Under the pieces are notes generated by a model. That model saw nothing but the letters and a program-made list of their open reading frames with translations. It was not told the origin of the DNA and did no database searches. A program made the translations under genes and the position numbers. Positions 16,194 through 30,147 of a DNA stretch of 64,000 nucleotides are shown piece after piece. The DNA lies in assembly GCF_988243305.1 (NCBI RefSeq), contig NZ_OZ547136.1. The stretch is one strand, 5' to 3'. How positions within the stretch are numbered: the stretch's first letter is position 1; every line of letters begins with the position of its first letter.

Positions 16194-16246
16194 TCAAATC
16201 AGCTTGCGCGCTATTTTACGCGCCAACGCGCAAGGAAACTTGATTT

Positions 16247-17173
16247 TTAACTGCGTGGGTTGCCGAAAATTTCTAAAAATCCGCTGATTTCCGGCCTGCG
16301 CTGGGTAAACAAGGTCACAATATCTTCTACCGCTTTGCCGCTGCCAAATTTGCGCCATGCCAGACTCAATGGCGAAGGGGGGCGCATCGTTGGGATTACC
16401 CGGCTGACCAGTTGTTGATTATCGATCATTGACTGGCAAAGTGATTTTGGCAAAAAACCAATGCCAACGCCCGCCAGATGGGCGGCGATTTTCGTTTCCA
16501 TATCGGGAACAATAATCTCTTTTTGCCCCGGCAATCGCCAGGCGACGCGTTTGGTTAGTGTGCGGGCGCTGTCTTCAATATTAACCGCCGGAAAGCGCCG
16601 CAACTGCGCTTCTGTTAGCGGCTCTTCAACGTTCGCCAGCGGATGATCCGCCGCCATGACAAAGCGCCATTGCACCGATCCTAAGGGATCAAGACTAAAG
16701 GTATTTGCCAGCGCCTCGGTTCCCGTGACGCCGATAGCCAGTGAAAAACCTTCGTATAATAGCGAATCCCAGACGCCCATATAGATTTGTCGGGAGATGT
16801 GAAACTGGGTAAAGGGGTAACGTTCATTCAGCCACGCCAGCAACTGGGCGACGGCCTGGGGGTTGTAGAGCAGGTTGTTGATGACAATATTCACCTGGCG
16901 TTCCACGCCATCATTCACCTGTTGCAGCTCGCTGGGCATACTTTCCAGCCAGCTCAGCCAGTCTCTGGCCTGGGAAAGTAGATGCTCGCCAGCCGCTGTC
17001 AATGTCACGCTGCGAGTCGTGCGGAAAAACAGCGCTACTCCGGTATTCTCTTCCAGAAGTTTAATGCGATAACTGATTGTCGCCGTGGTTTTACATAATC
17101 GTTCTGCCGCTTTTGAAAAACTTCCTGTTTCAGCAACCGCAATGAAAGTCCGCAAGGTTTCTGGATCGAACAT
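16247..17173 (-). CDS. allS: LysR-family activator of the allantoin regulon AllS
   Basis: LysR HTH N-terminus; divergent from allA. Confidence 0.85.
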
Positions 17174-17280
17174 CTTCAGGTATCCCCTTTTAAATCCGCA
17201 AGTTGCGTGATTTTCTTATCCTCTGATTTATCAGTATTTTTACATGATAACCCTGTTCAATTTGTGGACTAAATCTAGTT

Positions 17281-17297
17281 TTGGAAAAATATTCCAA
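17281..17297. promoter_or_regulatory. AllR-type operator TTGGAA-AAATA-TTCCAA (allS-allA intergenic)
   Basis: Inverted repeat read directly; same architecture as the site upstream of gcl. Confidence 0.55.
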
Positions 17298-17402
17298 CTT
17301 TTGTATTGATGTTGTTCTCTTAAGGTTTTAGATTGCCTGTTATTGAAACCAAGCTGACCGGTCGGCAGTGGTTGAACGGAATTATGTTACAAGGATAAAA
17401 AG

Positions 17403-17885
17403 ATGAAACTTCAGGTATTACCGTTAAGTCAGGAAGCCTTTAGTGCTTATGGCGATGTAATCGAAACGCAGCAACGGGATTTTTTCCATATTAACAATGG
17501 CCTGGTGGAGCGTTACCACGATTTGGCGCTGGTTGAGATTCTTGAGCAAGACCGTACGCTCATCAGCATTAACCGCGCGCAACCGGCGAATCTGCCGCTG
17601 ACCATTCACGAACTCGAACGTCATCCGCTGGGCACTCAGGCCTTTATCCCGATGAAAGGTGAAGTGTTTGTGGTGGTCGTGGCGTTAGGTGACGACAAAC
17701 CAGACCTGTCAACGCTGCGGGCGTTTATCACCAACGGTGAACAGGGGGTGAATTACCATCGTAACGTCTGGCATCACCCACTTTTCGCCTGGCAGCGCGT
17801 CACCGATTTTCTGACCATCGATCGCGGCGGCAGTGACAACTGTGATGTTGAAAGTATTCCTGAACAGGAACTCTGTTTTGCGTGA
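17403..17885 (+). CDS. allA: ureidoglycolate lyase AllA
   Basis: 160-aa ORF, synteny. Confidence 0.85.
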
Positions 17886-17962
17886 CGCCTGCAACCGACT
17901 TGCATAAGATAAACTAATTGTTCATTGTTTATGCTCACTTGTAGGTCGGAGTTAACGTAGGT

Positions 17963-18778
17963 ATGACGGAAGTTAGACGGCGCGGCAGGCCAGGACAGGC
18001 GGAGCCTGTGGCACAGAAGGGCGCACAGGCGTTAGAGCGGGGAATTGCGATTCTGCAATATCTGGAAAAAAGTGGGGGAAGTTCGTCGGTTAGCGATATT
18101 TCTCTCAATCTGGATTTGCCGCTCTCCACGACCTTTCGCTTGCTGAAGGTTTTACAGGCAGCGGATTTTGTCTATCAGGACAGTCAGTTAGGCTGGTGGC
18201 ATATAGGATTAGGTGTCTTTAACGTCGGTGCGGCGTACATCCATAACCGCGATGTCCTCTCCGTCGCCGGGCCGTTTATGCGCCGCCTGATGTTACTTTC
18301 CGGCGAAACGGTCAATGTCGCTATTCGTAACGGCAATGAAGCAGTATTAATTGGTCAGTTAGAGTGTAAATCGATGGTCAGGATGTGTGCGCCGCTGGGC
18401 AGTCGTCTGCCGCTGCATGCTTCCGGTGCGGGCAAGGCGCTGCTTTATCCGCTGGCGGAAGAAGAGTTGATGAGCATCATTCTGCAAACCGGTTTGCAGC
18501 AGTTTACGCCAACGACGCTTGTGGATATGCCCACCTTGCTGAAGGACCTGGAACAAGCGCGTGAACTGGGCTATACCGTAGATAAAGAAGAGCATGTTGT
18601 CGGCCTGAATTGCATAGCTTCAGCAATTTACGATGATGTAGGTAGTGTTGTTGCCGCTATCTCCATCTCCGGGCCTTCATCAAGACTGACAGAAGATCGT
18701 TTTGTCAGTCAGGGTGAGCTGGTCAGAGACACCGCCCGCGATATCAGCACGGCGTTGGGACTGAAAGCACATCCATAG
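17963..18778 (+). CDS. allR: IclR-family repressor AllR
   Basis: IclR HTH N-terminus plus effector domain; synteny. Confidence 0.9.
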
Positions 18779-18790
18779 TGTCTGTCGCAT

Positions 18791-18817
18791 CCCGCTCTGC
18801 GGAGCGGGTTTTTTTGA
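18791..18817 (+). terminator. rho-independent terminator after allR (CCCGCTCTGCGGAGCGGG + T7)
   Basis: GC stem followed by T tract. Confidence 0.7.
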
Positions 18818-18830
18818 CAAAATTTGAAAG

Positions 18831-18847
18831 TTGGAAAATTTTTCCAA
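18831..18847. promoter_or_regulatory. AllR-type operator TTGGAA-AATTT-TTCCAA upstream of gcl
   Basis: Inverted repeat read directly, ~20 bp upstream of the gcl start. Confidence 0.6.
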
Positions 18848-18867
18848 TTTATAGAGGTAGGAATAAA

Positions 18868-20649
18868 ATGGCAAAAATGAGAGCCGTTGACGCGGCAATG
18901 TATGTGCTGGAGAAAGAAGGTATCACCACCGCCTTCGGCGTTCCGGGAGCAGCAATCAATCCGTTCTATTCAGCGATGCGTAAGCACGGCGGTATTCGTC
19001 ACATTCTGGCGCGTCATGTGGAAGGTGCTTCGCACATGGCGGAAGGTTATACCCGCGCAACGGCAGGGAATATCGGCGTATGTCTGGGGACTTCCGGTCC
19101 TGCGGGCACGGACATGATCACCGCGCTCTATTCCGCTTCTGCTGATTCCATTCCTATTCTGTGTATTACCGGCCAGGCTCCGCGCGCCCGTCTGCATAAA
19201 GAAGATTTCCAGGCCGTTGATATTGAAGCAATTGCTAAACCGGTCAGCAAAATGGCGGTTACAGTTCGTGAAGCGGCGCTGGTGCCTCGTGTGCTGCAAC
19301 AGGCGTTTCACCTGATGCGTTCTGGTCGCCCGGGTCCGGTACTGGTGGATTTACCGTTCGACGTTCAGGTTGCGGAAATCGAGTTTGATCCTGACATGTA
19401 CGAACCGCTGCCGGTCTACAAACCTGCTGCCAGCCGTATGCAGATCGAAAAAGCGGTAGAAATGTTAATTCAGGCCGAACGTCCGGTGATTGTTGCCGGG
19501 GGCGGGGTAATCAATGCTGACGCTGCTGCACTGTTACAACAGTTTGCTGAACTGACCAGCGTTCCGGTGATCCCAACGCTGATGGGCTGGGGCTGTATTC
19601 CCGACGATCATGAACTGATGGCCGGGATGGTGGGTCTGCAAACCGCGCATCGTTACGGTAACGCAACGCTACTGGCGTCCGACATGGTGTTTGGTATCGG
19701 TAACCGTTTTGCGAACCGTCATACCGGTTCGGTAGAGAAATACACCGAAGGGCGCAAAATCGTTCATATCGATATTGAGCCGACGCAAATTGGCCGCGTG
19801 CTGTGTCCGGATCTCGGCATTGTCTCTGATGCTAAAGCGGCGCTGACGCTGCTGGTTGAAGTGGCGCAGGAGATGCAAAAAGCGGGTCGTCTGCCGTGTC
19901 GTAAAGAATGGGTCGCCGACTGCCAGCAGCGCAAACGCACTTTGCTGCGCAAAACCCACTTCGACAACGTGCCGGTGAAACCGCAGCGCGTGTATGAAGA
20001 GATGAACAAAGCCTTTGGTCGCGATGTTTGTTATGTCACCACCATTGGCCTGTCACAAATCGCTGCGGCACAAATGCTGCATGTCTTTAAAGACCGCCAC
20101 TGGATCAACTGTGGGCAGGCAGGCCCGCTGGGCTGGACCATTCCGGCGGCGCTGGGGGTTTGTGCCGCTGATCCAGAGCGCAAAGTGGTGGCGATTTCCG
20201 GTGACTTCGACTTCCAGTTTCTGATTGAAGAATTAGCCGTTGGCGCACAGTTCAACATTCCGTACATCCATGTACTGGTCAATAACGCCTATCTGGGTCT
20301 GATTCGCCAGTCGCAGCGCGCGTTTGATATGGATTACTGCGTACAGCTCGCGTTCGAAAATATTAACTCCAGTGAAGTGAACGGGTACGGCGTCGACCAC
20401 GTAAAAGTAGCGGAAGGTTTAGGTTGTAAAGCGATTCGGGTCTTCAAACCGGAAGATATTGCACCAGCCTTTGAACAGGCGAAAGCCTTAATGGCGCAAT
20501 ATCGGGTACCGGTAGTCGTGGAAGTTATTCTCGAGCGTGTGACCAATATTTCGATGGGCAGCGAACTGGATAACGTCATGGAATTTGAAGATATCGCCGA
20601 TAACGCAGTGGACGCACCGACTGAAACCTGCTTCATGCACTATGAATAA
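18868..20649 (+). CDS. gcl: glyoxylate carboligase (ThDP-dependent)
   Basis: Start at [13 protein letters not shown] (593 aa); ThDP-enzyme motifs. Confidence 0.9.
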
Positions 20650-20661
20650 GGGAGATAAATA

Positions 20662-21438
20662 ATGTTACGTTTCTCTGCTAATTTATCGATGTTATTTGGT
20701 GAATATGATTTTCTCGCCCGTTTTGAGAAAGCTGCGCAGTGTGGTTTTCGCGGCGTTGAATTTATGTTCCCTTATGACTATGACATTGAAGAATTAAAAC
20801 AGGTGCTGGCGAGTAATAAACTCGAACATACGTTGCACAATTTACCGGCAGGTGACTGGGCGGCGGGCGAGCGGGGTATTGCTTGTATTCCTGGTCGTGA
20901 AGAAGAGTTTCGGGATGGCGTAGCAGCAGCGATTCGTTATGCTCGTGCGCTGGGTAATAAAAAAATTAACTGTCTGGTCGGTAAAACGCCGGCTGGTTTC
21001 AGCAGTGAACAGATTCACACAACGCTTGTAGAAAACCTGCGTTATGCCGCGAATATGCTGATGAAAGAAGATATTTTATTACTGATTGAACCTATCAACC
21101 ATTTTGATATTCCTGGTTTCCATCTCACCGGAACTCGCCAGGCACTGAAACTGATTGACGATGTTGGTTGCTGCAATTTGAAAATTCAGTATGACATTTA
21201 TCACATGCAGCGGATGGAAGGTGAATTAACTAATACCATGACTCAGTGGGCCGATAAAATTGGTCACCTGCAAATTGCTGATAATCCGCATCGCGGCGAA
21301 CCGGGAACCGGAGAAATTAATTATGATTATCTCTTTACGGTAATCGAAAATTCTGACTACAACGGTTGGGTTGGGTGTGAATATAAACCCCAAACCACCA
21401 CGGAAGCCGGTTTACGCTGGATGGATCCGTACCGTTAA
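20662..21438 (+). CDS. hyi: hydroxypyruvate isomerase
   Basis: 258-aa ORF; synteny. Confidence 0.9.
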   Translation: MLRFSANLSMLFGEYDFLARFEKAAQCGFRGVEFMFPYDYDIEELKQVLASNKLEHTLHNLPAGDWAAGERGIACIPGREEEFRDGVAAAIRYARALGNKKINCLVGKTPAGFSSEQIHTTLVENLRYAANMLMKEDILLLIEPINHFDIPGFHLTGTRQALKLIDDVGCCNLKIQYDIYHMQRMEGELTNTMTQWADKIGHLQIADNPHRGEPGTGEINYDYLFTVIENSDYNGWVGCEYKPQTTTEAGLRWMDPYR

Positions 21439-28911: not shown

Positions 28912-30147
28912 TTATTTCTGCCAGGCAAGTTGATAAAGCATGAGTGCCAACGTTTTGACCCCTTCGGCAAGGTCGGTAATATTGGTGCGTTCCGCCGGGT
29001 TATGACTGATCCCGTTGATGCTGGGAATGAAAATCATGCAGGTTGGTACGCGAGGCGCGAAAATTTGCGCGTCGTGCCCGGCACCACTGTGCATCACCCG
29101 GTAATTCAGTTTTTCGCTTTCACACATTTCTGTCAGGGTGGCGACCAGTTCCTTGTTCATCGGCACGGGTTCTTCGTCCATCCATAAATCGATATCAATA
29201 CCAATGTCCATTTCATCGCAAATCGCCCGCATGTCGTTTTCTAACTGTTGGGTGAAATCGCGCAGCACGGCAGCATCGGTATGACGACAATCAATGGTGA
29301 ACGTGGTTTTACCCGGCACCACATTCACCGTATTCGGGCGCGGCTCCACCTTGCCAAAGGTCAGCACCAGCGGGTCGCCCATCTTTTTCGCTTTTTCGAT
29401 CGACTGATGGCAAATGCGACTGAAAGCGTAAACCGTATCACGACGATAACCCATCGGCGTGGTGCCTGCATGGTTTGATTCGCCGTTCAGCGTCACCGTA
29501 TAGCGACGTTGCCCGACAATTGCATTCACCACGCCAATTGACTGCCCATTACTTTCCAGCACACAGCCCTGTTCAATATGCAGTTCAACAAAGGCTTTAA
29601 TATCCTGACGCGGAGTTAGTGGGGCGTTCGGCAGAGTAAATCCGCAAGCCTTCATCGCATCGACAAAACTATTTCCTTTGGCATCACAGATATTCCGCAC
29701 GTCGTCAGGATTCGCCAGCCCAAAGATATTTTTACTGCCCCAGAAGACATACGGGAAGCGACTGCCTTCTTCTTCTGCCATCGCCACCACTTCGACCGTA
29801 CGTAACGGCGCGCCGTATTGCGTTTTCAACCAGTCAATTGCCAGCCACGCCGCCAGCGCGCCGAATTGCCCGTCGAGGTTACCGCCGTTAACCACGGTAT
29901 CGATATGCGAACCGCTCAGAACCACTTCCTGTGGATATTCGGTCCCACTCAGGCGACCGTATAAATTGCCCACTTCATCGAAACGTGTTTCCAACCCGCT
30001 TGCTGCCATTCTTTTTTTAAATTGCTGCTGGGTTTCCAGCCATTCCGGCGAATAAAGTAAACGGGTCATACCACCCGTTGGGTCAGCGCCAAAAGAGGAA
30101 AGCCAGGGCAGCGTTTCTTCTATGGCTTGACGAAAATGTGTAATCAT
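28912..30147 (-). CDS. allC: allantoate amidohydrolase
   Basis: M20 peptidase family; start at MITHFRQAIE (411 aa), ORF extends to 30165. Confidence 0.85.
   Translation of the reverse strand: MITHFRQAIEETLPWLSSFGADPTGGMTRLLYSPEWLETQQQFKKRMAASGLETRFDEVGNLYGRLSGTEYPQEVVLSGSHIDTVVNGGNLDGQFGALAAWLAIDWLKTQYGAPLRTVEVVAMAEEEGSRFPYVFWGSKNIFGLANPDDVRNICDAKGNSFVDAMKACGFTLPNAPLTPRQDIKAFVELHIEQGCVLESNGQSIGVVNAIVGQRRYTVTLNGESNHAGTTPMGYRRDTVYAFSRICHQSIEKAKKMGDPLVLTFGKVEPRPNTVNVVPGKTTFTIDCRHTDAAVLRDFTQQLENDMRAICDEMDIGIDIDLWMDEEPVPMNKELVATLTEMCESEKLNYRVMHSGAGHDAQIFAPRVPTCMIFIPSINGISHNPAERTNITDLAEGVKTLALMLYQLAWQK

Follow-up and report, generated by a model that had tools for sequence, protein, structure and literature searches.

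Two palindromes in the allS-allA and gcl control regions of an Escherichia coli allantoin/glyoxylate gene cluster as operators of the repressor AllR

Two palindromes in the DNA analysed here, a 64-kb stretch which we refer to as the window, are almost certainly operators of AllR, the allantoin/glyoxylate repressor of Escherichia coli. Operator 1 (17281–17297) lies between the divergent genes allS and allA and is common to their two promoters, operator 2 (18831–18847) lies in the control region of gcl. These two AllR operators are already known and the finding is correct but ordinary; what our analysis adds is a refined 8-1-8 motif, a polymorphism of the central base and an independent confirmation across genera. 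On this reading the region is the usual allantoin/glyoxylate cluster of E. coli, its repressor control intact, and the result validates the calls of allS, allA, allR and gcl, including the gcl start at position 18868. The AllR box, an 8-1-8 palindrome which is invariant from Escherichia to Providencia and in which the central base toggles, helps regulon prediction and the design of glyoxylate biosensors, and leaves existing knowledge unchanged.

Two palindromes and their gene neighbourhood

The pattern TTGGAA-N5-TTCCAA (TTGGAANNNNNTTCCAA) has exactly two exact matches in the 64-kb window, at 17281–17297 (TTGGAAAAATATTCCAA) and at 18831–18847 (TTGGAAAATTTTTCCAA). Base composition predicts 0.0036 matches per 64 kb, or 0.00003 in both spacers when their own composition is used, and 100 dinucleotide-preserving shuffles of the sequence gave none. 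Copies with one mismatch are absent from the window, a single copy with two mismatches is present at 29978, and copies with up to three mismatches (21 observed vs. 32.6 expected in the window) are not above chance. Weak half-site-like matches at 17376–17392 and 18858–18874 were considered as auxiliary operators and rejected, their frequency being at chance level; the partial conservation of the former is owing to its overlap with the allA leader and ribosome-binding site, that of the latter to its overlap with the ribosome-binding site, ATG and first codons of gcl.

The five bases between the two hexamers are themselves constrained, reading AAWTW in all but one of 17 orthologous sites, and the element is therefore better written as an 8-1-8 palindrome, TTGGAAAA-W-TWTTCCAA. 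Symmetry is perfect over all 17 bp in the gcl copy, and in the allS/allA copy seven of the eight arm pairs match. To judge from the aligned sites, A and T are interchangeable at the central base, as would be expected where the dyad axis of a symmetric dimer falls.

The window is from E. coli, sharing 99.8% nucleotide identity with strain E300010 over positions 16200–20700 and ~98.4% with K-12 derivatives (DH1) over 17100–19000. Each gene around the operators scored well above the curated cut-off of its equivalog model. The targets of operator 1 are allS, a LysR-type activator gene on the minus strand (16247–17173; NF007501 AllS equivalog, 644 bits vs. a cut-off of 372), and allA, the ureidoglycolate lyase gene on the plus strand (17403–17885; NF002948 equivalog, 365 vs. 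275 bits). Next on the plus strand, and between both operators, is the gene of the cognate repressor itself, allR, of the IclR family (17963–18778; NCBIfam NF007548 AllR equivalog, 619 vs. 406 bits), the product of which is 100% identical to K-12 AllR by tblastn; a structure of the AllR effector domain is available (PDB 1TF1). The target of operator 2 is gcl, encoding glyoxylate carboligase, also on the plus strand (18868–20649; TIGR01504 equivalog, 1281 vs. 711 bits) and the first gene of the gcl operon; hyi and glxR were identified as well, far above the curated cut-offs of their NCBIfam equivalog models. The GTG start of gcl proposed by the open-reading-frame tool at 18778 is an upstream extension, the true start being the ATG at 18868, which is preceded by a GAGG ribosome-binding site at 18854–18857. 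The same four genes, allS, allA, allR and gcl, are annotated under the match to the window in ~5,400 complete E. coli genomes. A further 34 E. coli records match positions 17100–19000 at only 80–90% identity, in two places on plasmids; these records of the allA-allR-gcl segment could be divergent alleles or mobile copies.

Operator 1 sits near the middle of the 229-bp divergent spacer, its centre (17289) lying 116 bp and 114 bp from the ATG codons of allS and allA, respectively. The left boundary of the gcl promoter region is the intrinsic terminator of allR on the plus strand (18791–18815), in which a stem-loop at 18791–18808 with seven pairs, six of them G-C, is followed by TTTTTTT; the stem and the T-run are kept across genera. 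Operator 2 starts 16 bp past this T-run, and 20 bp lie between its end and the gcl ATG. The initial annotation, which had named two exact copies of the pattern and the four genes and had placed one copy in the allS-allA spacer and the other before gcl, directly after the allR terminator, is thus borne out by the exact matches (0 of 100 shuffles), by the equivalog scores and matching annotation in ~5,400 genomes, and by the coordinates of spacer and terminator.

The K-12 RefSeq record also contains a small RNA, AllZ (b4831), which spans the last ~200 nt of allR through the terminator. According to PMC8175672, AllZ was predicted from RIL-seq data and its existence confirmed by northern blotting; it interacts with grcA and may be transcribed from a promoter of its own. 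Its region corresponds to 18581–18815 in the window, mapping to K-12 positions 533,629–533,863, and the gcl operator starts 16 bp past the AllZ 3' end.

Agreement with K-12 sites and conservation across genera

The palindromes match AllR sites that have been published for K-12. Suvorova & Gelfand 2021 give the AllR motif as KTTGGAAWAWTWTTCCAAC, which in their account is attributed to Rintoul et al. 2002, and their supplementary table lists K-12 sites at allS −124 (gTTGGAAtATTTTTCCAAA), allA −124 (TTTGGAAAAATaTTCCAAc) and gcl −39 (gTTGGAAAAATTTTCCAAt), with equivalent sites in Shigella and Salmonella Typhi (PMC8222616). The 19-mer containing operator 1 (TTTGGAAAAATATTCCAAC) fits this motif at all 19 positions and that containing operator 2 (GTTGGAAAATTTTTCCAAT) at 18 of 19, the last base being T, as it is in the K-12 gcl site. 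The 19-mers start 123 bp from the allA start codon, 125 bp from the allS start codon and 38 bp from the gcl ATG, which agrees with the published −124, −124 and −39 within the counting convention of the table. The proposal in the initial annotation that the two elements are AllR operators, expected rather than novel, holds on this evidence, as the palindromes fit the motif and the sites are already in the K-12 table, with the same sequences at the same offsets.

The likeness to the K-12 AllR operators (PMC8222616) extends to the same genes in the same order, the start-codon offsets, the arms of the gcl operator and an AllR protein without a single difference, and the departures from K-12 are few. 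Operator 1 is identical to that of K-12 in the alignment, and the allS-allA spacer shows differences at only 2 of its 229 positions, neither of them close to the operator. The gcl operator differs from that of K-12 (TTGGAAAAATTTTCCAA) solely in its central base (18839), which is T in the window and A in K-12. The change is a symmetric one, so that the window operator is the reverse complement of the K-12 operator and still a perfect palindrome. The T-centred form is tabulated for Shigella flexneri (PMC8222616) and was also found in Citrobacter FP75 and in strain RIT691. Between the gcl operator and the ribosome-binding site, positions 18848–18850 read TTT in the window and TAA in K-12, a change located where one would look for the start of transcription or the early leader.

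Conservation of a 17-bp site within E. coli is uninformative, since the region as a whole is at least 98% identical. More distant loci were retrieved with a pattern encoding ten residues of the gcl N-terminus, using one genome per species, a search which is blind to the upstream DNA. The N-terminal pattern is conserved far beyond the enterobacteria, and the scan, which is not a census, yielded at least 120 loci, mostly from alpha- and beta-proteobacteria, with eight from Enterobacterales.

Among the matches listed, all seven loci with a close allR orthologue carried an exact TTGGAA-N5-TTCCAA 31–38 bp before the gcl ATG, whereas the 300 bp upstream of gcl contained no exact copy in any of the 112 other loci listed. 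The seven comprise three Citrobacter, Superficieibacter, the Enterobacteriaceae strain RIT691, Klebsiella oxytoca and Providencia, and from Citrobacter to Providencia the AllR orthologues beside gcl show 65–91% identity. In the six listed loci that reach the allS-allA spacer there was in each case exactly one second exact copy, located in that spacer, and no further copy with up to one mismatch in the 4 kb upstream of gcl. When the spacers are aligned with MAFFT, the operator stands out in each as the best-conserved block, with 15 of its 17 columns invariant. Of the remaining columns, 37 of 212 are invariant in the allS-allA spacer (Fisher p = 3.6e-9) and 17 of 93 in the gcl spacer (Fisher p = 4.5e-8), a share of ~18% in the surrounding spacers. 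Among the matches listed, the operators thus leave a phylogenetic footprint in other genera, at orthologous positions and co-occurring with allR.

Promoters and operator geometry

At gcl the room for a promoter is narrow. Only 45 bp separate the end of the terminator stem (18808) from the ribosome-binding site (18854), with operator 2 in the middle of this interval. In K-12, an 81-bp fragment that extends between the stop codon of allR and the ribosome-binding site of gcl suffices for lux expression under AllR repression (PMC13300388), which places the gcl promoter within a segment centred on the operator. From the short interval and the repressed fragment together, it is very likely that operator 2 overlaps the gcl promoter. 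The initial annotation described both operators as flanking promoters; their location in the promoter-bearing spacers stands, but at gcl at least the description is looser than the geometry suggests.

A sigma-70 scan of positions 17100–18950 gave no credible promoter for allS, allA or gcl. Two hits near the gcl start were rejected: on the plus strand, that at 18841–18869 has its −10 on the gcl ATG, and on the minus strand, that at 18874–18846 serves no gene. A candidate −35 hexamer for gcl, TTGACA, can be read on the plus strand at 18814–18819, abutting the terminator T-run; it is partly conserved, with TTGACC, TTCACA, TTGGAT and TAGACA at the same place in other genera. An alternative candidate element for gcl is the extended −10-like sequence (TGGAAAAT) inside the operator. 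Positions 18814–18829 (TTGACAAAATTTGAAA) resemble by eye, in the left half only, the RutR consensus. A RutR site upstream of gcl has been reported (PMC10163214).

For allA, a candidate promoter on the plus strand (TTGATG-N16-TAGATT, 17307–17334) matches at 8 of 12 positions, which is below the threshold of the promoter scan, and the spacers of Enterobacteriaceae retain both its hexamers, equally far from the operator. With this candidate, operator 1 would be centred near −52, on the upstream side of the −35 and not at a classical position for occlusion. On the minus strand, conservation across species suggests a candidate allS −10 region around 17236–17244 (TGTAAAAAT). Apart from the operator, the Enterobacteriaceae share four conserved blocks in the allS-allA spacer, at 17224–17246, 17261–17272, 17307–17314 and 17323–17334 (TGATTTAT.AGTATTTTTACAT, AATGTGG.CT, TTGATGTT and GGTTTTAGATT). 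They may be promoter elements of allS and allA, or may instead be bound by a further regulator of allS, responsive to nitrogen limitation or anaerobiosis, of which PMC12535856 makes mention.

Repression by AllR and alternative explanations

In K-12, AllR binds both the control region of allS/allA and the promoter of gcl, with glyoxylate as the inducer and allantoin as the corepressor (PMC12535856), and glyoxylate is described as lowering AllR DNA binding in PMC11323563, which cites Walker 2006 for it. By analogy with this literature, binding of AllR at the two window sites and its release by glyoxylate is the best-supported reading. Each 17-bp, A/T-rich palindrome would have the size and symmetry for one helix-turn-helix dimer, and operator 1 would serve both allS and allA. 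Bound AllR would bar RNA polymerase from the allS, allA and gcl promoters, presumably by steric hindrance. As glyoxylate, a product of the pathway branch, builds up, it would bind the AllR effector domain and DNA binding would fall, with derepression of allA, the gcl operon and allS as the result, and AllS would then activate allD and allF.

There is room for only one AllR dimer per operator, and a single-dimer model gives a second dimer no role. AllR is said, from Walker's 2006 work, to be active as a tetramer, and mutants deficient in tetramerisation are reportedly inactive in vivo, which would speak for a loop in which one tetramer, a dimer of dimers, bridges the operator pair across the 1.55 kb containing allA and allR and represses three promoters cooperatively. 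Such a loop would also make use of operators that each fit only one dimer and of a two-operator arrangement around allA-allR that is present in every genus examined, and IclR-family repressors are described as tetramers, in that case for IclR (PMC11323563). We nevertheless consider it unlikely. The operators are 1548–1647 bp apart in the different loci and do not keep a common helical phase, conserved gene order is a simple explanation of this distance, and the extra half-site-like matches at 17376–17392 and 18858–18874 are no commoner than chance. Moreover, the 81-bp gcl fragment is still repressed by AllR when placed at the ara locus (PMC13300388), so that repression does not require a second operator close by, although that chromosome still carries the native copies. 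An alternative proposal, similarly doubtful and, like the loop, supported by geometry only, is that each palindrome contains an extended −10-like element (TGGAAAAAT, or TGGAATATT on the other strand) of the promoters under its control, in which case one site would shut divergent promoters directly.

The AllR reading has also to be set against readings in which AllR is not the protein concerned, or not the only one. That the palindromes are chance A/T-rich sequences, or generic promoter or UP-element sequence without a specific protein partner, is extremely improbable: they do lie in A/T-rich spacers, where such sequences are likelier, and in the rest of the window degenerate copies are no commoner than chance predicts, yet the expectation for both spacers is only 0.00003 copies, the shuffles contained none, the elements are exactly conserved at orthologous positions in at least seven lineages in which the flanks diverge, and they match a published motif with an experimental basis (PMC8222616). 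Very unlikely, though less so than chance, is a role as operators of IclR, a paralogue which represses aceBAK and senses glyoxylate and pyruvate, whether of IclR alone or of IclR and AllR in common. The published IclR box of the aceBAK and iclR promoters (TGGAAATNATTTCCA) is indeed very similar (PMC8222616), being likewise an A/T-rich palindrome with TGGAA/TTCCA arms around one central base and recognised by a paralogous, glyoxylate-sensing repressor of the IclR family. AllR has been called a 'close sister' of IclR (PMC11323563), the window AllR scores 248 bits on the IclR model, and a response to glyoxylate is common to both proteins. The boxes nevertheless differ in the inner base of the half-site, which is T in the IclR box and A in the window, where both sites have TGGAAAA and not the IclR half-site TGGAAAT, and this inner A-A is invariant in 16–17 of the 17 orthologous sites. 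The window sites have in addition a conserved outer T/A pair (TTGGAA...TTCCAA) and belong to another regulon; they are published as AllR sites (PMC8222616), and among the matches listed the exact motif accompanies an adjacent allR orthologue in seven of seven loci, against none of the 112 others.

Boxes closer to the IclR type occur upstream of gcl in more distant bacteria. In six Ensifer/Sinorhizobium loci an IclR-family gene is divergent to gcl at a distance of ~190 bp. These loci share with the window a TGGAA...TTCCA palindrome upstream of gcl and adjoining an IclR-family gene, but the regulator is only 36–37% identical to AllR and is transcribed divergently from gcl, the box reads TGGAAAT-N-ATTTCCA or TGGAAATGAATTCCA at −74 to −76, and a partner site at allS/allA is lacking. 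That a gcl box beside so distant a regulator is IclR-like argues further against IclR as the partner of the window sites, and implies that control of gcl by an IclR-family protein and a TGGAA-type box appears to be older than the enterobacterial AllR system. No AllR-like gene was found in the gcl locus segment of Thorsellia anophelis, yet gcl is preceded there, at a distance of 192 bp, by a perfect palindrome of the IclR-like type (TGGAAATCATTTCCA).
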